DNA from: a virus
Lineage: Duplodnaviria; Heunggongvirae; Uroviricota; Caudoviricetes
Reading direction: 5' to 3' (one strand)
IMG/VR virus record: IMGVR_UViG_2703718775_000013
DNA: 64,000 nt
The notes beneath the pieces are model-generated. The model did no database searches and was not told the origin of the DNA. It saw only the letters and a list, made by a program, of their open reading frames with translations. The first letter of the stretch is position 1; each line of letters begins with the position of its first letter. Below, piece after piece: positions 3,608 to 64,000 of this stretch. The translations under genes were made by a program, and so were the position numbers.

Positions 3608-4272
3608 ACTTGCCGGGTACGTCTCCGGCGAGGGCTTCCACCTCCGTATGCTTTTCGGCGCACCGCGCCCTGGCTGCAATTCGGTAACAGGGGATGCATA
3701 ACCCTGGCTTCCAGCGTGATTAGCGCCTTCAGCATGACGGGATATACCCGTAAATTCGTGGAACTGTACCCAAAGTGCTGTTAAGCACCGCTGTTACGCT
3801 GAAAAGAAAACGCAACAGGAAAGGACGCTGACCAACAGATGGCCCCTTCTCGTTCATCTGGTTAATCACACCAGCGCCCTTACCTGTTGTGCCTCCCCGT
3901 TCCCTAATACACAGACGGGGACACTCTGCGGTCGATTTTTTGACGGGGGACGACTCATACCCCATGGCATCTGGCTTCTTAGGCCGCTACCATCATCAGA
4001 TCATCGTTTGCATTTACTTTAATGGTCAGTTTCTAAACCGCCGCAAAGTCGCTAACCATGACGAAAACCCTGAAAAAAACGCCCACCCGAAGATGGGCAA
4101 ACTGGACGCTCGTAACGCACTTCGGCGTTGCCACTTAGGCGCATGGTCAACCTGGCAACTCGGTGGTTTGTCTGGGAGGACTAGGCCCAGCCATGCTTAC
4201 CGCCGCGCCTGTCGCGGCTAACAGCTAAATCGCTCTATAAATCACGATTCATTGAGGTAATATTACACTAAT

Positions 4273-4289
4273 AAATTTATTAGAGCAAT
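4273..4289. promoter_or_regulatory. C1 repressor operator-like site (perfect match to reverse complement of ATTGCTCTAATAAATTT)
   Basis: AAATTTATTAGAGCAAT read directly; sits at the head of the minus-strand leader/tRNA/ban operon, analogous to the P1 ban-operon operator. Confidence 0.7.
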
Positions 4290-8223: not shown

Positions 8224-8572
8224 GTTGTAACCCTTGAATATCAACCACAGAAAGCTCGTCTTTGTAGAAAAAGGCCAGGTTGTGGCACCCCCTCGTTTGA
8301 GCGTATGAGCTGGGACCAATTTCGTTCTTCCAGACAAATGGCTTCAAATCCGTACGGCGAAGCATAAAAACGCGATTTATTCCGCTCTGATTCCCAATGA
8401 GGCAAAAGCCTTCTTTCACCTTGATAGCCTGCAAGTTGTCGAGTTCACCGCTGGTTACACGGCTATCGAACTCTTTGCGGCTTATTAGCTCCATCTGCAT
8501 CTGACGACTCCAAACAAATGCCCATTGAAGGGCGATGGCTGAATGGTACCGAAAATACGACATAAAAAACAA
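8216..8572 (-). CDS. hypothetical protein (first gene of rdgC-dmt operon)
   Basis: 118-aa ORF, stop overlaps rdgC start (translational coupling); start may be ATG at 8572 or 8563. Confidence 0.5.
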
Positions 8573-15710: not shown

Positions 15711-17417
15711 TTGAGTAACTTACGCGAATACCAGAATCGTATTGCAGATATCGCAAAACGCTCTAAAGCTGTGCTTGGCTGGGCAAGCACTGCGCAGTTC
15801 GGTACTGATAACCAATTCATTAAAGATGATGCCGCGCGTGCCGCATCTATCCTTGAAGCTGCACGTAAAGACCCGGTTTTTGCGGGTATCTCTGATAATG
15901 CCACCGCTCAAATCGCTACAGCGTGGGCAAGTGCACTGGCTGACTACGCCGCAGCACATAAATCTATGCCGCGTCCGGAAATTCTGGCCTCCTGCCACCA
16001 GACGCTGGAAAACTGCCTGATTGAGTCCACCCGCAATAGCATGGATGCCACTAATAAAGCGATGCTGGAATCCGTCGCAGCAGAGATGATGAGCGTTTCT
16101 GACGGTGTTATGCGTCTGCCTTTATTCCTCGCGATGATCCTGCCTGTTCAGTTGGGGGCAGCTACCGCTGATGCGTGTACCTTCATTCCGGTTACGCGTG
16201 ACCAGTCCGACATCTATGAAGTCTTTAACGTGGCAGGTTCCTCTTTTGGTTCTTATGCTGCTGGTGATGTTCTGGACATGCAATCCGTTGGTGTGTACAG
16301 CCAGTTACGTCGCCGCTATGTGCTGGTGGCAAGCTCCGATGGCACCAGCAAAACCGCAACCTTCAAGATGGAAGACTTCGAAGGCCAGAATGTACCAATC
16401 CGAAAAGGTCGCACTAACATCTACGTTAACCGTATTAAGTCTGTTGTTGATAACGGTTCCGGCAGCCTACTTCACTCGTTTACTAATGCTGCTGGTGAGC
16501 AAATCACTGTTACCTGCTCTCTGAACTACAACATTGGTCAGATTGCCCTGTCGTTCTCCAAAGCGCCGGATAAAGGCACTGAGATCGCAATTGAGACGGA
16601 AATCAATATTGAAGCCGCACCTGAGCTGATCCCGCTGATCAACCACGAAATGAAGAAATACACCCTGTTCCCAAGTCAGTTCGTTATCGCGGCTGAGCAC
16701 ACGGTACAGGCGGCGTATGAAGCACAGCGTGAATTTGGTCTGGACCTGGGTTCCCTACAGTTCCGCACCCTGAAGGAATACCTGTCTCATGAACAGGATA
16801 TGCTGCGTCTTCGCATCATGATCTGGCGTACTCTTGCGACCGACACCTTTGACATCGCTCTGCCGGTTAACCAGTCCTTTAATGTATGGGCAACCATCAT
16901 TCGTGGCAAATTCCAGACTGTATATCGCGACATTATTGAGCGCGTTAAATCTTCTGGTGCGATGGGGATGTTTGCTGGTGCTGATGCAGCATCTTTCTTC
17001 AAACAGTTGCCGAAGGATTTCTTCCAGCCAGCCGAAGACTATATCCAGACTCCGTATGTTCACTACATCGGTACCCTGTTCGGTAACGTGAAAGTGTACG
17101 AAGTACCTGCTGGTATTTGTAAGAACTTAACGACAGAGAACATTCAGTTCAGCTCGATGGATGTGCTGTGCTACGTCCGTGATGAAAATCCGGGTAAAGC
17201 AGGCTTCGTGACTGGTGATGCTGTCCCGGCTATCCCGTTCCAGCATCCGACCACTCCGGCGCTGGTCAACCGTACCACACTGTGGGGTTCGGCTATCAAC
17301 GATATGCACCCACGCAACGGCGCTGATTACTTCACTCGTGTAACGCTGACAATGGCCAAAAAAGGCGGGCTTAACTTCATAAGCGGCGACACGATTGATG
17401 CCGGTGACTCTGAGTAA
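15711..17417 (+). CDS. major capsid protein candidate (P1 gp23-like, about 62 kDa precursor)
   Basis: Probable TTG start at 15711 with AAGGAAG SD (ORF track ATG at 15690 lacks SD); size and position after parS fit recalled P1 gene 23; no homology search done. Confidence 0.5.
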   Translation: MSNLREYQNRIADIAKRSKAVLGWASTAQFGTDNQFIKDDAARAASILEAARKDPVFAGISDNATAQIATAWASALADYAAAHKSMPRPEILASCHQTLENCLIESTRNSMDATNKAMLESVAAEMMSVSDGVMRLPLFLAMILPVQLGAATADACTFIPVTRDQSDIYEVFNVAGSSFGSYAAGDVLDMQSVGVYSQLRRRYVLVASSDGTSKTATFKMEDFEGQNVPIRKGRTNIYVNRIKSVVDNGSGSLLHSFTNAAGEQITVTCSLNYNIGQIALSFSKAPDKGTEIAIETEINIEAAPELIPLINHEMKKYTLFPSQFVIAAEHTVQAAYEAQREFGLDLGSLQFRTLKEYLSHEQDMLRLRIMIWRTLATDTFDIALPVNQSFNVWATIIRGKFQTVYRDIIERVKSSGAMGMFAGADAASFFKQLPKDFFQPAEDYIQTPYVHYIGTLFGNVKVYEVPAGICKNLTTENIQFSSMDVLCYVRDENPGKAGFVTGDAVPAIPFQHPTTPALVNRTTLWGSAINDMHPRNGADYFTRVTLTMAKKGGLNFISGDTIDAGDSE

Positions 17418-51455: not shown

Positions 51456-51944
51456 TCAAAACGGAATATCGTCGTCAAAGTCCATTGGAGGTTCGTTATT
51501 AGCGTTGCTCTGAGGTTTACCGCCACCACTGTATTGCTGGTGGTTTTGAGGTTGGTTTGATTGCCCCCAGCCATTTGTGGACTGTGAATCGTCGCGACGA
51601 GCGCCGATCATTTGCATGGTGCCGCCCTGGCTGACGATAATTTCCGTCGTGTAACGTTCTACACCGGCGTCATCTGTCCACTTACGGGTTTTAAGTTTCC
51701 CTTCGATGTAGACCTGAGAACCTTTTCGTAAATACTCACTCGCAATTTCAGCAAGTTTTCCGAACAAAACGACTTTATGCCATTCTGTTTGCTCTTTCTG
51801 TTGGCCCGTTTGCTTGTCGCGCCATGATTCATTCGTTGCGATGCTGAGTCTTCCGACCGCGCCGCCATTTGGTATATACCTGATCTCCGGGTCTTGCCCC
51901 AGGGTGCCAATCAGGATGACTTTGTTTACACCGCGTTGTGCCAC
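51456..51944 (-). CDS. ssb: single-stranded DNA-binding protein
   Basis: [30 protein letters not shown]...[33 protein letters not shown]...[11 protein letters not shown], collinear with E. coli SSB including acidic tail. Confidence 0.95.
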
Positions 51945-51964
51945 TTATCTTACCTAATAAAATA

Positions 51965-51980
51965 AAATAATTAGAGCAAC
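51965..51980. promoter_or_regulatory. C1 operator-like site upstream of ssb (core ATTAGAGCAA)
   Basis: AAAATAATTAGAGCAAC about 25 bp upstream of ssb start. Confidence 0.45.
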
Positions 51981-52962: not shown

Positions 52963-55693
<2,731 letters not shown>

Positions 55694-55759: not shown

Positions 55760-58700
55760 ATGAACAAGCTATCTATGGGGGTGTTTCGCTGTTCAAGTGT
55801 CAGCGAAATATTGAAATACATTAGGGCAATAACATCTCACCGAGCGCCGATTAAATACGGCGTGGAAAAGGTGGAAGGCAAAAGCTATGACCGACTGCGC
55901 CGGGAGGCGAATCAGAAGGCGATAGATTTGCTTAATTCACTGGTGGACGGCGCGACACTGACAGATGAACAGCGCCAGATCCTGGCTGGGTACACCGGTG
56001 AAGGCGGCATTGGCGGGTCCGTCTCCGAATATTACACACCAAAGCCGATCGCTGAAGGTGTCTGGGAGATCATGAAGCTCTACGGCGCGGACGTAGGTAA
56101 CACTCTGGAACCATCGGCGGGCACCGGCGTTTTTAATGAGACAAAACCGGTTGGTACGGTGATGACTGCGACTGAGATCAGCAGTGTTTCCGGTCGTATA
56201 AACCAGTTGTTACACCCGGAAGACAGCGTACAGATTTCCCCGTTCGAACAGCTGGCTATAAGCACACCTAACGATTCATTCGACCATGTTGTGGGTAACG
56301 TTCCGTTCGGCGGTCGTGATAACACACGCAACATCGATAAGCCTTACGCAGAAGAAACGGACATGGGTTCTTACTTCATGCTCCGCATGCTGGACAAGAT
56401 AAAGCCAGGCGGATTCATGTGCGTGATTGTGCCGCCGTCCATTGTTTCAGGTTCAAACATGAAGCGGTTACGCCTGCGCCTATCACGGAAAGCAGAATTT
56501 CTTGGTGCCCACCGCTTGCCTACCGGTACTTTTGACGCAAACGGGACCAGTACGGTCGTAGATGTGGTGCTGATGCGCAAACATCCGGCAGAGATGGCTG
56601 AGAAAATCCCCCTGGTGGATGAAAGCACTCTTGAATCAGCAAATGTGCTTTGGCCAACGTTTATTTCTGGCAAGTGGTTTGAAAAGGATGGCCGCCGGTT
56701 TGTTCATGGCACCCAAGAAAAGGGCTTCCGGGGGCGTATTGAGGTTCGTGCCGACGGTCAGATTGATAACCAGGCTCTTAAAGCGAAGCTGATTCATCGT
56801 TTCGAAAGCCGTATCGACTGGTCTTTGCTCGATATGGCTGAACCGTCACCGACCGCAGACGTTGTTGGTGAAGGGGAAATGCGCCTGATTAATGGCGTAT
56901 GGCAAAAATATGCTGGTGGTCGCTGGATTGAAGCTGATGCCGGGAAGGAACTTAAGATCGATGCTGCCAGTTATGGCGCGGATAGCTGGGAGGCTCTTCA
57001 GCGTAACCTGACTACAACAGAAGGCCGTCTCGGCATGACATTTACCCAGATGGCAAATGTCCGCGATAAGTACACCACATCAATCAGCGACGATATGGTG
57101 CAGCTGGTGGACTGGATTAACAGCCAGCCTGAAAAATACCGTGAACGCTTGTATCGCGGGGCGATGATTGGCCGGATGTTAATTGAATATCAGGACATGA
57201 AGGCCGCCGGGCATAGTGCTGAACAAATCGAACAGCAGCGCCTTTCTCTGGTATCCCGTTTGCAGGCAGAGATTGACCGTTTTGGTAACCCCGGTCGCGG
57301 TCCGATAGCGAAATTATCGGGGAGCGGTGCGCGCGCCTGGTTTGCTTTCCGTGGTGCAATTAAGCTGGATGGCACTATTTCTGACGAGCTGACAGGAAAA
57401 CTGGTTACGCATGATTCCAGCGCCAGTTATGACTCCACCAGCTATCAGGACACCCTGCGTTATCTCTACAGTGATCTCACTCGCGATCCAATCCAGCTCG
57501 ATGATTTCCGCCTTGCGTTTACCGGCGAACTGCCAGCCAGTGATGATGAGTTGCTTAATTTATTGGCCAGCACCCCTGGCATTGCGGTTTCACCGTATGG
57601 CGGGATTGTTCCGTTCGCCCGCGCCACCAGCGGCGACATTAACGAGATAGTGGCTCCAAAACAGGAATTCCTCGCCACGCTCCCCGACGGTCCAGTAAAG
57701 AACAACGTCCTTAATCAGCTGGCAGCGATCGAAGAGAAGCGCATCAAGACGCCAGCAGAGAATATCCGCTTTAAGCTCAATAGCCGTTGGTTCGACCGCT
57801 CCGTCATTCTGGAGTTTTTGCAGGAAAACGGCTATCCGGATCTGCGCTATGTGCAGTCAGTGCAGCTGGAAGGCGACGAAATGGTTTCTGACACCTATCA
57901 CGGTGGTGATGGTCTGTTCGTCGGGCACCGATACGGTGTCGTCCAGCGCAAGGATAAAGAAACAGGCGAGATCCGCTACGAGTGGGACCGTAAATCAGGT
58001 GAAAACGCGACCGGGTTCCCGGCACAACTGGAAAAGTATCTCAATGGTGCGCGTATCGGTGGCAAAGATAGCGCGACGGCGAACGGCTACCGCGAGCAGA
58101 TGGCACTGCTTGAGGACCAGTTCAATAAGTGGATCAAGACGCACGATCGCTACGATGAGCTGGTTGCCAAATACAACGATGTGTTCAATAGCAATATCCC
58201 GTATGAACACTCTGGCGATCCGCTTGGGTTGAAGGGATTAAGCGGTAAGCGCCAGCCATTTGATTACCAGAATAGCGAGGTGCGCCGACTGTCCGAAGAT
58301 GGGCGCGGCATCCTGGGCTTCGGCACCGGGCTGGGTAAAACCACGACCGCGCTGGCGCTTGAGGCGTTCAACTATGAGAACGGTCGCTCCACCCGTACTG
58401 CTTATGTAGTGCCTAAAGCAGTGCTGGAAAACTGGTATTACGAAGCAAAAGAGTTCCTGAGTGAAGAGGCATTCAGTAACTACCTGTTCGTCGGTCTTGA
58501 TGTGCTGATGGATGGCGATCAGATTCGCCAGGTGCCGGTGCTCGATGAGAACGGTAAACCTGTTCTTGGTACTGATGGCACTCCAGTTATGCGCGATGCT
58601 CTTAAGCTGGCAGATGAAGCCACTATCACGGCGCGGATGAACGCGATCCCGCACTCAAATTACCGTGCAGTCGTGTTTACCAAAGAACAATACGCCCGCA

Positions 58701-61700
58701 TTCCGCTACGTGATGACACCGTAGATGAGCATGCACAAGACATGCTTTATGACTTCGTTGCCGCCGGGCGCGTAGCCAGCGCAATGGATTCCGACTCCCA
58801 TCGTAAAGAGGCGGCGCGTCGCTGGGTATTGTCGGAGTATTCAGATACCGGTACCGAAAAAGCAGAGAAGTATCCGTACTTTGAGGATATGGGCTTCGAT
58901 AGTGTGATCGCCGACGAAGGTCACAACTACCGCAATAGCTATAAAAATGGTCGCGAAGCGTCACAACTGGCCTATCTGCCCACCAGCGCGGTGGCGCAAT
59001 CGGCGCGGGATATGGCAATCAAAAACGCGTACCTGATGAAAAAGAATGGCGGGCGCGGGCCGGTTCTCCTGACTGCAACGCCAGTCGTTAACACCCCGAT
59101 CGATGCATACAACATGCTTTCTCATGTTCTGCCGAAGGAATACTGGCAGAAGATGGGGATCTACGGTCCTGATGACTTCGTTAAATTCTTCGGCAAGACC
59201 AGGCTGGAAACGGTACAGAAAATCAGCGGTGAAGTTGAAGAAAAAATGGCGCTGGTGGGCTTTGAAAACCTTGATGCGCTGCGCGGTATATTCCATCGCT
59301 GGGTAACGCTTAAAACGGCGGAAGACGTTAAGGATACCGTGGAGATCCCGGAGCTGGACGAACACCAGCAGGATGCACCACTTACTGAAGAACAACTGGC
59401 GGCGTATGAAGAATTGCGTCAGCAGGCGGAAGCGGCGGCCAAAGCCAACAATGGCGTAACGACCTCGGTCAATGAAGACGGCGTGATTGAGCACGAGAAA
59501 GCCCGTCCGATCTTCTCAATAATCAGGGATATGGACCGCGTATGTACTGACATGGACCTGTACTATCGCCGGATCACCTATCGTTTCCTGCCGGAGTACG
59601 CAGATGCGGTGCAGCAGCTGGCGGACAGTTTGCCTAAACAAGCCACCAGCGAAGACGACGACAGTGATGATTCAATCACGCAGCAATCGCAATACTCCCT
59701 GATAGATAAGGGCGAGTTTATTCAGTTGCAGGTTCCGGAAGCGTTCGAGCAGGAAGTGAATAAGCGCCTGGCCAGGTTTGGCATTGACGAACAGACCGTA
59801 ACTCACCCCGTTACGCCCAAATACGCGAAGCTGATTGCCACGCTGAAGGAGTTTTTCCCGGAAGGTAAGCAAATCATCTTCACCGATGAAAAAACGCAGC
59901 ACCAGAAGCTCAAGCGCATTATCTGCAATGCTCTTAACCTTGAACCTTCAAAGGTGGGGATACTGAATGCTCAGACGGTTGCCGAGGCAGGTAAAACCGG
60001 TAAGAAACTGAAAGCGGTTAAACCGCCGAAAGAGCTACCGGATGAACCAACAGATGCACAGATAGCGAAATACAACGAGCAAATGGCTCTGTATGACGCC
60101 TATATCGCGCAGCAAAATGAAATGTCGCTGGGCGGGCTGGAAAAGATTGCTGCCGACTTCCAGGAGGGCCGGACTCCGATCATCATCTGCAACAAAAAGG
60201 CAGAGGTGGGTATCAACCTGCATCGAGGAACGACTGACATCCATCATCTGACGTTGCCATGGACACCAGCCAGTATCGCACAGCGTAACGGTCGCGGTGC
60301 CCGAGTTGGTTCCAACCGTGCAAGCGTTCGCGTTCACTACTACTGCGGCAAGGGTTCTTTCGATGAATACCGACTGAAGACGCTGAAGCGTAAAGCAGGC
60401 TGGATCTCCGATATCCTCCGTTCAGATAAGTCAGAAATGGAGAACGCCGACGCCAACGATATGATCGAAATGCAGATGTATACCGCTAAGGATGATGGCG
60501 AACGTCTGGCAATGATGCAGGTTCAAATGGATAAGGCGAAAGCCGCGCAACGCGCTCGCCAGAAAGAACAGGCTACTATCGACCTTCAGAACTACATCAA
60601 GGCGCAGCACGCAGCTGGTGAGGATGTGGAGGTGCTTACCGCTGAATTAGAGCGAAGAAAAGCGGAACTCGAAAAGACCACCGCCGACGTCGCCAAATTC
60701 AAACAGGCGGTAATGGCCAAAGCAGCTGATAACGCAGACTGGAAAGCCCGCTGGGGTAGCGTCCATCACACAGACCGTACGTTGTTAGCACAGTATCGCG
60801 CGTCGTTGAAAAGCGCCATTCAGCGCAAGGCTAATATCTCTCAAGCCATCTCCCGCTATGAGAAATTATTGAACCGTACTCAGAAGGCCGCGACGGATAT
60901 CAAACGCCTTCGCCCGCTGGTGGAGGATGCAATAAATAAAGGCATTCTGGATGTTGATCCTGACCTGGTTAACCATGCGAGTGAGTTCCTTATTATCGGC
61001 GATCGCTCATGGCGTGTAGGCCAATACTACGATTGTGCCGGTGATATCGTTCGCATTAAGTCGCTGGACTTCGACAGCCAGCGCGCAGACGTGGAGATTA
61101 TCTTTACCTTCAAAGGTACCAAATCGGGTAACTGGGATGTGAAGACGCTGGATAAACAGGTTGATGTAACTCCCGATGAAGATGCTGTTATGCAGAAAAT
61201 CAGTGGTGGCGTCTCCATCGCCGGGATTAACGACATCATTTCCTGTGACGATTTCTACCGTTTCCAGCAGCGCGGCATGATCAAAATCACTGACTCATAC
61301 GGCGTTCAGACTACAGAGTCAGGCTATAGCATTGATTTTGTTGGTACCTATACGGACCCACTGAAGCATGCGGTTTACCCGGATCGCCGTGACGGCGCGC
61401 TGAAGTCGTCAATTGCAAAATGGGTGCTTGGTATGATGTCTGAAGGGAATAACCGCCAGGTCCGTTTGGCAGAAGTATTCCTGACTGAACTGTTTGGCTC
61501 CAATTATGGCGATGTAATCGCGTCATATGGAGATACGCTATCCCCTGAAGCAATTCAGGAGAAAATAGCGGATGCGATCGCCAGAATGCCGGAGAAAACA
61601 AGCCAGGGGGCTACTCGTAACGGGGATTCTGAACTTGAGGTCACCAATGCCATTTTCGGTACCCATGAGTTCCGGGCGTCAGATTATGAGATCACCACAG

Positions 61701-62527
61701 CACAGTTTGGCACCATTGGCATTTACAGCAATAAAGCCGAGATCAAGCAGGCAATGGACGCAGCAAGCGCGCGTATCGCAGCAGAACGGGAAGCCAATCT
61801 GAATCATGCAGTCGCCGCACTGACTCAATCGTGGGTAACAGCAATCAGGGAGGCCGCCACCACAGGGAAAATCACACCTGCAATTGCGGATGTCGTAAAC
61901 GACGGCTCTAAATTTATGGATGCCTATCAAATGGATGCGGTGAAGTTGCCATCAGCCTATGGTCAACTCAGCTATCGCATGACCTACAACCTGGTATCAA
62001 TGTTTTCCGACCTTGCCATCCTTGGGCTGGTGGATCTTAACGAGGTTACGCCGGAATTGCTCAGCATGCGCAAGAATCATGTGGAGATATTGCAGAGAAT
62101 TAACACGGTTCTTGCCGGGCGCACCGATGAAGAGAAACAGGCCGACGCTGATCGGATAAACCTGGCCCTTGGCAACATCACGGAGGAAGAAATTGCCGCC
62201 AGAAACGAGAAACAAGAAGAGTTATCATCAATACAGGGTGATGCCACCAGCATAGCTCAGTCTCTTGGTCTGAATTATCGCGTATCCACCGCCGACCTGA
62301 AGATGATGTACGCACCAAAATTCGCCGCTGGCGAGGTATTTGGGCTTCAGGAAGCCTCAGGCATGAAAGGCGTTCTTTTCCGTGCGAAAGACGCAATCAA
62401 GGCGAAATTCGGCGCTCGCTGGCTGCCAGCGAAGGCGAAGAACAGCGATTTCCCGGGTAACTGGTGGATTATCGAGACAAAACACAACGTGGCGGACGTT
62501 CTGGCCGTCATCCAACAATACGCATAA
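55760..62527 (+). CDS. darB: giant antirestriction protein DarB (N-terminal methyltransferase-like region, central helicase domain)
   Basis: 2255-aa ORF; helicase motifs GFGTGLGKTTTALA (Walker A) and ADEGHNYRN (DEAH-like); N-terminal GNVPFGG methyltransferase-like motif; length matches recalled P1 DarB. Confidence 0.85.
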   Translation: MNKLSMGVFRCSSVSEILKYIRAITSHRAPIKYGVEKVEGKSYDRLRREANQKAIDLLNSLVDGATLTDEQRQILAGYTGEGGIGGSVSEYYTPKPIAEGVWEIMKLYGADVGNTLEPSAGTGVFNETKPVGTVMTATEISSVSGRINQLLHPEDSVQISPFEQLAISTPNDSFDHVVGNVPFGGRDNTRNIDKPYAEETDMGSYFMLRMLDKIKPGGFMCVIVPPSIVSGSNMKRLRLRLSRKAEFLGAHRLPTGTFDANGTSTVVDVVLMRKHPAEMAEKIPLVDESTLESANVLWPTFISGKWFEKDGRRFVHGTQEKGFRGRIEVRADGQIDNQALKAKLIHRFESRIDWSLLDMAEPSPTADVVGEGEMRLINGVWQKYAGGRWIEADAGKELKIDAASYGADSWEALQRNLTTTEGRLGMTFTQMANVRDKYTTSISDDMVQLVDWINSQPEKYRERLYRGAMIGRMLIEYQDMKAAGHSAEQIEQQRLSLVSRLQAEIDRFGNPGRGPIAKLSGSGARAWFAFRGAIKLDGTISDELTGKLVTHDSSASYDSTSYQDTLRYLYSDLTRDPIQLDDFRLAFTGELPASDDELLNLLASTPGIAVSPYGGIVPFARATSGDINEIVAPKQEFLATLPDGPVKNNVLNQLAAIEEKRIKTPAENIRFKLNSRWFDRSVILEFLQENGYPDLRYVQSVQLEGDEMVSDTYHGGDGLFVGHRYGVVQRKDKETGEIRYEWDRKSGENATGFPAQLEKYLNGARIGGKDSATANGYREQMALLEDQFNKWIKTHDRYDELVAKYNDVFNSNIPYEHSGDPLGLKGLSGKRQPFDYQNSEVRRLSEDGRGILGFGTGLGKTTTALALEAFNYENGRSTRTAYVVPKAVLENWYYEAKEFLSEEAFSNYLFVGLDVLMDGDQIRQVPVLDENGKPVLGTDGTPVMRDALKLADEATITARMNAIPHSNYRAVVFTKEQYARIPLRDDTVDEHAQDMLYDFVAAGRVASAMDSDSHRKEAARRWVLSEYSDTGTEKAEKYPYFEDMGFDSVIADEGHNYRNSYKNGREASQLAYLPTSAVAQSARDMAIKNAYLMKKNGGRGPVLLTATPVVNTPIDAYNMLSHVLPKEYWQKMGIYGPDDFVKFFGKTRLETVQKISGEVEEKMALVGFENLDALRGIFHRWVTLKTAEDVKDTVEIPELDEHQQDAPLTEEQLAAYEELRQQAEAAAKANNGVTTSVNEDGVIEHEKARPIFSIIRDMDRVCTDMDLYYRRITYRFLPEYADAVQQLADSLPKQATSEDDDSDDSITQQSQYSLIDKGEFIQLQVPEAFEQEVNKRLARFGIDEQTVTHPVTPKYAKLIATLKEFFPEGKQIIFTDEKTQHQKLKRIICNALNLEPSKVGILNAQTVAEAGKTGKKLKAVKPPKELPDEPTDAQIAKYNEQMALYDAYIAQQNEMSLGGLEKIAADFQEGRTPIIICNKKAEVGINLHRGTTDIHHLTLPWTPASIAQRNGRGARVGSNRASVRVHYYCGKGSFDEYRLKTLKRKAGWISDILRSDKSEMENADANDMIEMQMYTAKDDGERLAMMQVQMDKAKAAQRARQKEQATIDLQNYIKAQHAAGEDVEVLTAELERRKAELEKTTADVAKFKQAVMAKAADNADWKARWGSVHHTDRTLLAQYRASLKSAIQRKANISQAISRYEKLLNRTQKAATDIKRLRPLVEDAINKGILDVDPDLVNHASEFLIIGDRSWRVGQYYDCAGDIVRIKSLDFDSQRADVEIIFTFKGTKSGNWDVKTLDKQVDVTPDEDAVMQKISGGVSIAGINDIISCDDFYRFQQRGMIKITDSYGVQTTESGYSIDFVGTYTDPLKHAVYPDRRDGALKSSIAKWVLGMMSEGNNRQVRLAEVFLTELFGSNYGDVIASYGDTLSPEAIQEKIADAIARMPEKTSQGATRNGDSELEVTNAIFGTHEFRASDYEITTAQFGTIGIYSNKAEIKQAMDAASARIAAEREANLNHAVAALTQSWVTAIREAATTGKITPAIADVVNDGSKFMDAYQMDAVKLPSAYGQLSYRMTYNLVSMFSDLAILGLVDLNEVTPELLSMRKNHVEILQRINTVLAGRTDEEKQADADRINLALGNITEEEIAARNEKQEELSSIQGDATSIAQSLGLNYRVSTADLKMMYAPKFAAGEVFGLQEASGMKGVLFRAKDAIKAKFGARWLPAKAKNSDFPGNWWIIETKHNVADVLAVIQQYA

Positions 62528-62560: not shown

Positions 62561-63001
62561 ATGGCCACACTATCTGATACAATAAAACCGAATAAAACAT
62601 ATCTTGAGGCGGTACTGCGTACGGCGTTGTTAGGAAAGACAGAAGACGAATACGTTGATTTCTTCCTGTCAGGGCTACGTGGGCGATTACTGAAAAATCC
62701 CCGCCTGTACCGCAGCTATGGCCCATACTGGCCGGAAATTAAAAAATTATTACTGGAGCGCGGTTATGGTAATTTCGGTCGTCTCGTTGACCGTGACGTT
62801 CGCAAAATTTACCGTTATGACCGCCCGGCGCTAACACTCATAGCCGCGACGCTCTACAGCCAGGAGCGTTTTGATAATGGTCAGATATACTCAGCCTGGC
62901 ATTTACTGCCAGTGCCTGAAGAAGTTGACGACCAGGACTATGAGTTTGAGTCTTACGATTTGGAAGTTGAAGCCTTGGCACAGGCTGGAGAGAAAACTTG
63001 A
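62561..63001 (+). CDS. hypothetical protein
   Basis: 146-aa ORF immediately after darB, coupled to next ORF (ATGA overlap). Confidence 0.55.
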   Translation: MATLSDTIKPNKTYLEAVLRTALLGKTEDEYVDFFLSGLRGRLLKNPRLYRSYGPYWPEIKKLLLERGYGNFGRLVDRDVRKIYRYDRPALTLIAATLYSQERFDNGQIYSAWHLLPVPEEVDDQDYEFESYDLEVEALAQAGEKT

Positions 63002-63246
63002 AAAAGCGATACTACACAGTAAAGCATGGGACGCTACGAGCATTACAAGAGTTTGCTGACAAGCATAACGTTGAGGTGCGCAGGGAAGGGGGAAGTAAAG
63101 CTCTGCGCATGTACCGTCCGGACGGGAAATGGCGGACGGTCGTCGATTTCAAAACTAACAGCGTTCCCCAGGGCGTCCGCGACCGGGCATTCGAAGAATG
63201 GGAACAGATCATCATAGATAACGCATTGCTCCTGAATGCGGATTGA
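62998..63246 (+). CDS. hypothetical protein
   Basis: 82-aa ORF coupled to upstream gene. Confidence 0.5.
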   Translation: MKKRYYTVKHGTLRALQEFADKHNVEVRREGGSKALRMYRPDGKWRTVVDFKTNSVPQGVRDRAFEEWEQIIIDNALLLNAD

Positions 63247-63297
63247 TTTATATATCGGGCAGTTGTAGCTGCCCGTTAAATTTTTGCCGCTCTTCAA

Positions 63298-63888
63298 TTA
63301 CACTATATCTTTTACTATAGAATTAGCATCCTCCAGTACGCCAATTTCTTCGATGCGTTTTTTTATTATTAATCGATTTGAAGCAATGATTGTGGACCAT
63401 CTTGTTTCCCAAGCTCTATAAGCATGCCACGAATAACCTAATCTCATTTCTTTGCTCATGTTGGACATTGAGTATTCAACGGCGTCTAAATATTCATTTT
63501 CATACTTAGTTCCACCAATTTCTAAAAGGCTGCCGAAATATATAAGCCATTTTGCAAGCTGCTCGTATTGCTCCCAAGCACCACTCTCTCTTGTTAAATC
63601 TCTTTTTTGTTTTATTATTCTCTTGAAAAAATCAACTACTTGTCCGTCATTCCAGTCGAAACCCTCAGATATAATCGAGGAGGTTATTTGATAGAATGAA
63701 TCTTCTAATCTAAGGTATTCATCCTTATAGTTGAAAGTGCCTGATAAAACTCTTTTTATACTTTGTCTGGCTCTTGCTATGACGCCTTCAATTAACATTA
63801 TGTTAATGCTCAATCTCTTAAAGAAAGAGTCTATTTCGGTGTTGTCAATTACTCGTATTCCAAAACAATAAAAATAATAATCCTTCAT
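63298..63888 (-). CDS. AT-rich hypothetical protein preceded by C1 operator-like site
   Basis: 196-aa ORF, GC clearly lower than backbone; operator-like sequence 30 bp upstream. Confidence 0.55.
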   Translation of the reverse strand: MKDYYFYCFGIRVIDNTEIDSFFKRLSINIMLIEGVIARARQSIKRVLSGTFNYKDEYLRLEDSFYQITSSIISEGFDWNDGQVVDFFKRIIKQKRDLTRESGAWEQYEQLAKWLIYFGSLLEIGGTKYENEYLDAVEYSMSNMSKEMRLGYSWHAYRAWETRWSTIIASNRLIIKKRIEEIGVLEDANSIVKDIV

Positions 63889-63917
63889 ATCTTGACTTAC
63901 TTCACTGCGAGAGATGA

Positions 63918-63934
63918 AAAATATATTAGAGCAC
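63918..63934. promoter_or_regulatory. C1 operator-like site (about 14-15/17 match)
   Basis: AAATATATTAGAGCACA upstream of minus-strand gene 63298-63888. Confidence 0.4.
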
Positions 63935-64000
63935 AGAGCGTTACCTTTCGAGAATATTTTGTAATCATTTATGGTAATGACTCCAACTTATTGATAGTGT

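Follow-up and report, generated by a model that had tools for sequence, protein, structure and literature searches.

The DNA analyzed here, referred to below as the window, is a 64,000-nucleotide stretch of a P1-like phage-plasmid that runs in the orientation opposite to that of the P1 reference, with darB, ulx, and lxc on the plus strand. These genes are 98-99% identical to those of P1, P7, RCS47, and SJ46, and the identity to every deposited P1-like phage ends at the lxc stop codon. The right-hand end of the window carries the following features.

55760-62527, plus strand: darB
62561-63001, plus strand: ulx
62998-63246, plus strand: lxc, a modulator of C1 and the last gene of the P1 backbone; a variable slot is bounded on the left by its stop codon
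63256-63275, plus strand: terminator-like hairpin, in the 51 nt that separate the lxc stop codon from the convergent SIR2 stop codon
63298-63972, minus strand: 3' portion of a SIR2 gene, codons 212-435 plus the stop codon, with 100% protein identity to WP_032271833
63298-63888, minus strand: 196-aa open reading frame (ORF) with an ATG start, corresponding to the SIR2 protein from its internal Met240 onward
63919-63935, minus strand: C1-operator-like 17-mer TGTGCTCTAATATATTT, in codons 224-229 (LCSNIF), 30 nt upstream of the ATG
63964-63972: one copy of the 9-bp IS1 target-site duplication, ATCATTTAT on the plus strand and ATAAATGAT in the sense of the gene, codons 212-214
63973-64000, plus strand: IS1 terminal inverted repeat, insB-proximal end, GGTAATGACTCCAACTTATTGATAGTGT; the element continues past the window end

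A preliminary description of this DNA had reported a 196-aa ORF whose base composition departs sharply from that of the darB region. Both observations were reproduced: the ORF is present on the minus strand, and the G+C content falls from ~0.50-0.55 over darB, ulx, and lxc to 0.31-0.37 over 63300-63900. The SIR2 gene as a whole has a G+C content of 0.36. The hairpin belongs to the low-G+C cassette and not to the P1 backbone; RCS47 and SJ46 have other hairpins in the spacer beside lxc. No RNA family was detected by Rfam over 62900-64000. A distant blastn search of 63240-64000 against the phage collection gave no match, indicating that no deposited P1-like phage genome contains the cassette; plasmid records do carry it. 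Plasmids almost identical to the window (99.5% over 24 kb) have an annotated TnpB of the IS200/IS605 type (RNA-guided endonuclease family) within the stretch matching 40000-63972.

The 196-aa reading frame is the distal part of a longer SIR2 gene

The ORF had been described as lacking recognizable motifs. This holds for Pfam (E <= 1), PADLOC, and NCBIfam, none of which gave a match, but not for PHROGs: the ORF aligns with positions 240-434 of the 434 positions of PHROG 7567 and is part of a gene with a SIR2_2 domain. Among the profile sets tried, PHROGs alone exposed it as half of a longer family.

The parent gene is found intact on related plasmids. WP_032271833 is a 435-aa SIR2-family protein encoded by a 1308-nt gene (locus L001 6059-7366, minus strand), and its residues 212-435 are encoded in the window without any difference. 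The start codon of the ORF is the internal Met240 of this protein. Upstream of the ATG, the frame stays open and homologous up to 63972, with a stop codon ~33-37 codons before Met240. Up to this position, NZ_CP027575 and others share the DNA at 100% identity. Approximately 70 PLSDB plasmids, mostly non-mobilizable and IncY/P1-like, match 63240-63972 (12 of them at 99-100%), and position 63972 is the endpoint of every one of these plasmid matches. In the intact plasmids, the gene is annotated as "SIR2 family protein" and lies between lxc and mat, convergent with lxc. The ORF, initially taken for a complete gene, is the 3' part of this 435-aa SIR2 gene. Nor is the locus simply cut by the window end, as had been supposed; beyond 63972 it no longer resembles the intact gene, and the window's final 28 bases are an IS1 terminal repeat.

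Of the SIR2 Rossmann fold, the remnant keeps the final helix and strand; the helical C-terminal domain is retained whole. The SIR2_2 match spans residues 117-252 in the intact allele, of which the window retains ~40 residues (212-252). Unlike the parent gene, the fragment lacks the NAD-binding GxG loop and the catalytic Asn and His: the conserved GTGFS 21-25, N121, and H155/H157 all precede codon 212, on the far side of IS1. No N-terminal SIR2 half was found elsewhere in the window. The supposed 196-aa gene is thus the distal fragment of an IS1-split SIR2 gene and has no catalytic residue. The fragment by itself is predicted to fold (AF2, pLDDT 87); its first ~17 residues, which in the intact protein are part of the SIR2 Rossmann fold, are poorly modeled alone (pLDDT 58-65). 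It lacks a convincing Shine-Dalgarno sequence and a promoter of its own, and IS1 separates it from the gene's own start. Most likely, the remnant is a non-functional pseudogene fragment.

An IS1 element accounts for the break in homology

The last 28 nucleotides of the window match the annotated IS1 end of P1 (L003 22626-22653) at 27 of 28 positions, and the single difference is the base noted as a mutant inverted repeat in the P1 record. This end is the only IS1 sequence in the window. P1's resident IS1, which in the reference lies between isaA and isaB, has no counterpart in the window. Transcription of insB is directed toward the SIR2 remnant. The insB stop codon (63988-63990, minus strand; translation HYQ*) is in frame with the remnant, which is probably a coincidence; read-through would fuse the transposase to the C-terminal part of SIR2.

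Exact-protein look-ups recovered relatives of this junction. The exact 196-aa ORF is called in two E. coli assemblies, and the same junction occurs in assembly GCA_001609765.1 (contig L015), where 205 nt from the insB end of IS1 come after it. If IS1 inserted simply, with its typical 9-bp duplication, residues 1-214 of the SIR2 protein should be fused to GDAANLLI, encoded by the opposite IS1 end. This 222-aa fusion protein is found exactly in public data (WP_062859568.1 / KYV96619.1), and the GenBank accessions of the 222-aa and 196-aa pieces fall in one KYV/KYW series. A 97,216-bp contig of GCA_001607025.1 (L018) ends in the reciprocal junction, where ATAAATGAT is directly followed by the other IS1 end, GGTGATGCTGCCAACTTACTGATTTAGTG (also given as ATAAATGAT followed by GGTGATGCTGCC). 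The same 9-mer, ATAAATGAT, therefore abuts the insB-proximal end in the window and the opposite IS1 end in L018. The two junctions come from the window and sister assemblies rather than from one continuous read; exact scans of genome, viral, and metagenome contig sets for the IS1 junction returned none.

Together, these data show a clean IS1 insertion with the layout c1 ... cre-c8-ref-mat-SIR2(1-214)::IS1::SIR2(212-435)-lxc-ulx-darB. As an insertional disruption it is in no way unusual, with a canonical terminal repeat, a 9-bp direct duplication, and, here, an AT-rich target. The window end is probably an assembly break within multicopy IS1.

The IS1 allele is present in two assemblies, compared with at least 1000 contigs that carry the intact protein. 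Other, independently disrupted SIR2 alleles were also seen. In P0014, SIR2 residues ~344 to ~405 are fused to a transposase fragment with the look of the IS3 family; P0138 is a 166-aa ORF that starts at Met270 and occurs on 37 contigs; and the SIR2 gene of CP016549 (L002 6059-7366) has two homopolymer indels that cause frameshifts. These alleles reflect either frequent gene decay or sequencing errors.

The operator-like 17-mer lies within SIR2 coding sequence

The preliminary description had placed a degenerate operator ~30 bp upstream of the ORF and suggested repressor-controlled expression. The match itself is real: TGTGCTCTAATATATTT agrees at 14 of 17 positions with ATTGCTCTAATAAATTT, the asymmetric 17-bp sequence that we take to be the P1 C1 operator consensus, in line with the operators annotated in the P1 record and a zero-mismatch site in the window. 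It lies, however, within the SIR2 coding sequence. A match of this quality is expected ~0.02 times in the 723-bp AT-rich stretch and 0.32 times in the whole window, making it mildly unusual and not compelling. The window holds eight sites with three or fewer mismatches against the 0.32 expected, five of them with 0-2 mismatches, and genuine operators can be equally degenerate, with three mismatches in Oref (14/17) and four in Omat (13/17), so that C1 may bind the 17-mer as well.

The suggestion of repressor control fared less well. The 17-mer occupies codons 224-229, and no sigma-70-like -35/-10 pair was found near it on the minus strand, either in the window or in the intact allele. Four plasmid alleles of the 17-mer have 3, 3, 4, and 4 mismatches, the changes being synonymous and away from the consensus; in non-P1 homologues, the same codons give 5-6 mismatches. 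Twelve of its 17 bases encode a family-wide SNIF motif in AT-rich codons, and the G at position 2 is unseen among the genuine or candidate operators collected. Judged from these alignments, the 17-mer appears to be largely a by-product of the conserved SNIF motif and AT-rich codons, and a physiological role for it is improbable.

In the intact plasmids, Omat is conserved upstream of mat, and the 57-nt spacer between mat and the SIR2 gene contains no recognizable promoter. Any C1 control of the intact SIR2 gene would more plausibly act through the mat promoter; tuning by C1 through the internal 14/17 operator is less likely. In the window, IS1 separates the remnant from these mat-side signals.

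Several further operator-like sites were noted. The three-mismatch site GTTGCTCTAATTATTTT (51964-51980, minus strand) precedes a 162-aa ssb-like ORF (51456-51944) by 20 nt, where P1 has its Ossb, and differs at two bases from P1 Ossb, ATTGCTCTAATTAATTT; real operator positions can therefore score 14/17. Another three-mismatch site, ATTGCCCTAATGTATTT (55814-55830, minus strand), is inside the 5' end of darB, ~130 nt upstream of a divergent 569-aa prt-like ORF (53975-55684), and no operator is annotated at the corresponding position of the P1 record (17,251-17,322). Two overlapping matches on opposite strands at 4262-4289, with two and zero mismatches, look like a bivalent C1 operator. One-mismatch sites are also found at 8572, 24660, and 26332.

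The intact protein is a compact two-domain SIR2 protein

The homology and structure searches proposed in the preliminary description yielded the SIR2 parent gene and a two-domain AF2 model. The intact protein matches Pfam SIR2_2 (PF13289) over residues 117-252 with 83.6 bits (cut-off 24.5). A database search with it returned 701 homologues; the best 120 of these, a few partial entries aside, are 52-88% identical and mostly 431-444 aa long, and come from Escherichia, Xenorhabdus, Pantoea, Vibrio, Pseudomonas, Halomonas, Paracidovorax, and other genera. The protein is widespread in Proteobacteria. In 54 aligned homologues, GTGFS 21-25, TTNYD 119-123 (with N121), and H155/H157 are invariant. GTGFS 21-25, N121, and H155/H157 are the NAD-binding loop and catalytic residues of defense sirtuins. 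Further invariant Trp, Tyr, Asn, and Arg residues occur in the C-terminal part of the same 54 sequences.

The AF2 model (pLDDT 85, pTM 0.81) consists of a Rossmann-type SIR2 domain (residues 1 to ~255) and an all-helical domain (258-431). The SIR2 half matches DSR2, ThsA, and KomC by both sequence and fold. For the helical domain, Foldseek against the PDB gave no significant match, only generic helical repeats with E >= 0.06; helical-repeat matches were likewise all that was obtained when the searches of this domain against the PDB and of the full model against BFVD were taken together (E >= 0.017).

The helical domain alone gave only 79 matches (clusters) among 1.84 billion representatives. 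The full-length matches are 406-480 aa long and carry the domain at their C-terminal end, and all 10 of those tested have SIR2_2 at the N terminus. P0010, a short "C-terminal only" ORF, proved to be a full-length gene with a frameshift (one such DNA read), and the record of a metagenomic 183-aa homologue, P0013, holds only 144 nt upstream. These data suggest that the helical domain is an obligate appendage of the 435-aa SIR2 family. So far it has been found only at the C terminus of SIR2 proteins, which speaks against a 196-aa gene that exists on its own in nature.

The SIR2 gene is solitary in all contexts examined, including an E. coli prophage and the Pseudoalteromonas and Paracidovorax chromosomes, and no neighbor is shared across these contexts that could serve as a conserved partner gene. 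A 207-aa gene upstream of the Pseudoalteromonas homologue was considered as a relative of Mat and proved to be unrelated. The E. coli chromosomal homologue (59% identical; L007-L009 6001-7311) lies at the integrase end of a prophage with yfdP-like genes and beside narP/ccm, again a position typical of prophage cargo and defense genes.

Relationship to known defense sirtuins

DSR2 and DSR1 are single-protein SIR2 NADases, as exemplified by Bacillus subtilis DSR2 (PMC11850899, PMC10981675). DSR2 is the best match of the intact protein in both the Foldseek and the PDB-sequence comparisons. Both are stand-alone genes that encode a single polypeptide, in which a SIR2 domain of the NADase type forms the N-terminal part and an all-helical, repeat-like region the C-terminal part. 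The intact protein is much shorter, with 435 aa compared with ~1000-1200 aa for DSR1/DSR2, and lacks the MID domain. Its C-terminal domain has no detectable similarity to that of DSR2, and the Foldseek alignment superposes the SIR2 half only (TMq ~0.47, rmsd ~20 Å overall). The NCBIfam equivalogs for Dsr1 and Dsr2 reach 25.8 and 23 bits, respectively, against a cut-off of 1400, and align with the SIR2 region only. In the window, only the C-terminal part of the protein survives.

Thoeris ThsA has a similar SIR2 domain (PADLOC ThsA, 2.3e-17; PDB entry 6lhx, 2.6e-10) and a comparable length (~476 aa). Its C-terminal domain, however, is a SLOG/STALD nucleotide-binding domain, whereas that of the intact SIR2 protein is all-helical. 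No TIR-domain ThsB was present among the genes called next to the homologues in the contexts examined; the neighbors are lxc and mat in the plasmids and unrelated genes in the other contexts. Similarly, no HerA-like gene, as in SIR2-HerA, was seen beside any homologue examined. PADLOC returned domain-level matches only for the intact protein, the best being PDC-S25, a candidate system; the PADLOC "SIR2" models match weakly (2.6e-8). Our literature search returned no paper describing the 435-aa SIR2 protein in P1-like elements, and the protein therefore appears uncharacterized. We infer that the intact protein works like a compact DSR-type sirtuin, with an NADase-based defense function.

The lxc-mat interval carries different cargo in different elements

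The slot that holds the SIR2 gene is bounded by the lxc and mat stop codons, where the homology between variants ends exactly. Each variant brings its own spacer and terminator hairpin. The contents in three P1-like phages are as follows.

P1, L003 3469-9749: EcoP1I mod/res (type III restriction), with an IS5 in the reference
RCS47, L013 7848-7886: empty, a 39-nt spacer only
SJ46, L014 7848-9118: a RelA/SpoT-family gene (373 aa) oriented like the SIR2 gene; PADLOC PDC-S33

CapRel-SJ46 is an experimentally validated defense protein taken from phage SJ46 (PMC9712102). The record annotation together with that paper suggests that the SJ46 slot gene is probably CapRel-SJ46. EcoP1I mod/res and CapRel-SJ46 (for the latter, PMC9712102) are known prophage-borne defense functions; the former shares its slot with the SIR2 gene, and the latter probably does so as well. 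The SJ46 gene, like the SIR2 gene, lies downstream of mat in the same orientation. The proteins and mechanisms are unrelated to SIR2: CapRel-SJ46 acts by tRNA pyrophosphorylation, and EcoP1I by type III restriction. The systems that a DefenseFinder survey listed for P1-like phage-plasmids are type III RM, dGTPase, PrrC, and CapRel; no SIR2 system is among them (10.1101/2025.09.12.675607).

The sharp slot boundaries at stop codons and the foreign G+C content indicate that the SIR2 gene is acquired cargo in a slot that otherwise holds defense genes. The earlier idea of an acquired function agrees well with this foreign composition and with the differing slot contents of P1, RCS47, SJ46, and the window element; the SIR2 gene is not a core P1 gene.

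Discussion

We consider it highly probable that the locus is the back half of a SIR2 cargo gene cut by IS1, an ordinary broken gene rather than a new repressor-controlled one. The P1-like element and ~70 related plasmids carry a single AT-rich SIR2 cargo gene in place of mod/res. In this copy IS1 transposed into codons 212-214, generating the 9-bp target duplication. With only the distal piece inside the window, the ORF call starts at the next in-frame ATG, Met240, and gives rise to the 196-aa gene. The intact protein would act in the manner of the defense sirtuins DSR2 and ThsA: the helical C-terminal domain would be the part that recognizes a phage component or governs assembly, and the released SIR2 NADase would deplete NAD+, abort the infection, and protect the lysogen from competing phages. 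In the present copy, IS1 would have switched this defense function off.

That the ORF is instead a complete, independent gene, with a promoter under P1 C1 through the operator 30 bp upstream, is extremely unlikely. The ATG frame exists, gene callers have annotated it as a hypothetical protein (KYV96718.1), and a 14/17 operator 30 nt upstream has a local chance expectation of only ~0.02. However, the sequence 5' of the ATG is in-frame SIR2 coding sequence identical to that of the intact genes, the minus strand has no -35/-10 pair, the 17-mer is at four mismatches in two of four alleles, and the domain otherwise occurs as the C-terminal end of SIR2 proteins of ~400-480 aa. We also doubt strongly that the remnant is active, with IS1 read-through or a hybrid promoter producing a free C-terminal domain that serves as a decoy or dominant-negative form against intact SIR2 or a phage trigger. 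IS1 insertions can reportedly create outward promoters; insB is on the same strand, with its stop codon in frame ~33-37 codons before Met240, and the fragment is predicted to fold alone. Yet we found no promoter-like site on the minus strand and no obvious Shine-Dalgarno sequence before Met240, and the first ~17 residues are poorly modeled (pLDDT 58-65). The presence of this allele in two assemblies, against at least 1000 contigs with the intact gene, fits a recent loss rather than a selected form. Residual expression of the remnant through insB read-through is possible but unsupported.

It is unlikely that the 17-mer is a genuine site for C1 (plus Lxc) in the intact SIR2 gene, where it could tune expression as a roadblock or link it to the prophage immunity state. 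It matches the consensus about as well as some real P1 operators do (three mismatches in Oref and four in Omat), the P1-plasmid alleles score better (3-4 mismatches) than the non-P1 homologues (5-6), and the window is rich in such sites (eight at three or fewer mismatches against 0.32 expected). Against this stand the SNIF codons that account for 12 of the 17 bases, the lack of an associated promoter, the two alleles that depart from the consensus at synonymous positions, and a G at position 2 that none of the collected operators has. The RefSeq product name, "SIR2 family NAD-dependent protein deacylase," would fit a housekeeping deacylase rather than a defense effector. We regard this as very unlikely: the domain is of the SIR2_2 type (PF13289), the closest structures are those of the defense NADases DSR2, ThsA, and KomC, and the gene is solitary cargo in a phage-plasmid slot of restriction or RelA/SpoT genes and is also found at a prophage integrase end.

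Returning to the IS1-cut SIR2 cargo gene, a broader proposal is that its intact form constitutes an unrecognized single-protein, DSR-like abortive-infection system, that the lxc-mat interval is a swap-in slot for defense genes, and that the repeated decay of the SIR2 gene reflects its cost. We judge the case for this proposal to be about evenly balanced.

In summary, the window contains no new repressor-controlled gene but an insertion-inactivated cargo gene, and the "hypothetical proteins" of 196 and 222 aa are the two halves of one pseudogene. The intact allele, a member of a compact SIR2 family located in P1's restriction slot, is a well-motivated candidate for phage-defense testing. If the broader proposal is true, the lxc-mat interval of P1-like phage-plasmids would be a place where EcoP1I, a RelA/SpoT gene, and SIR2 are swapped in, and a place to look for further defense cargo in phage-plasmids.
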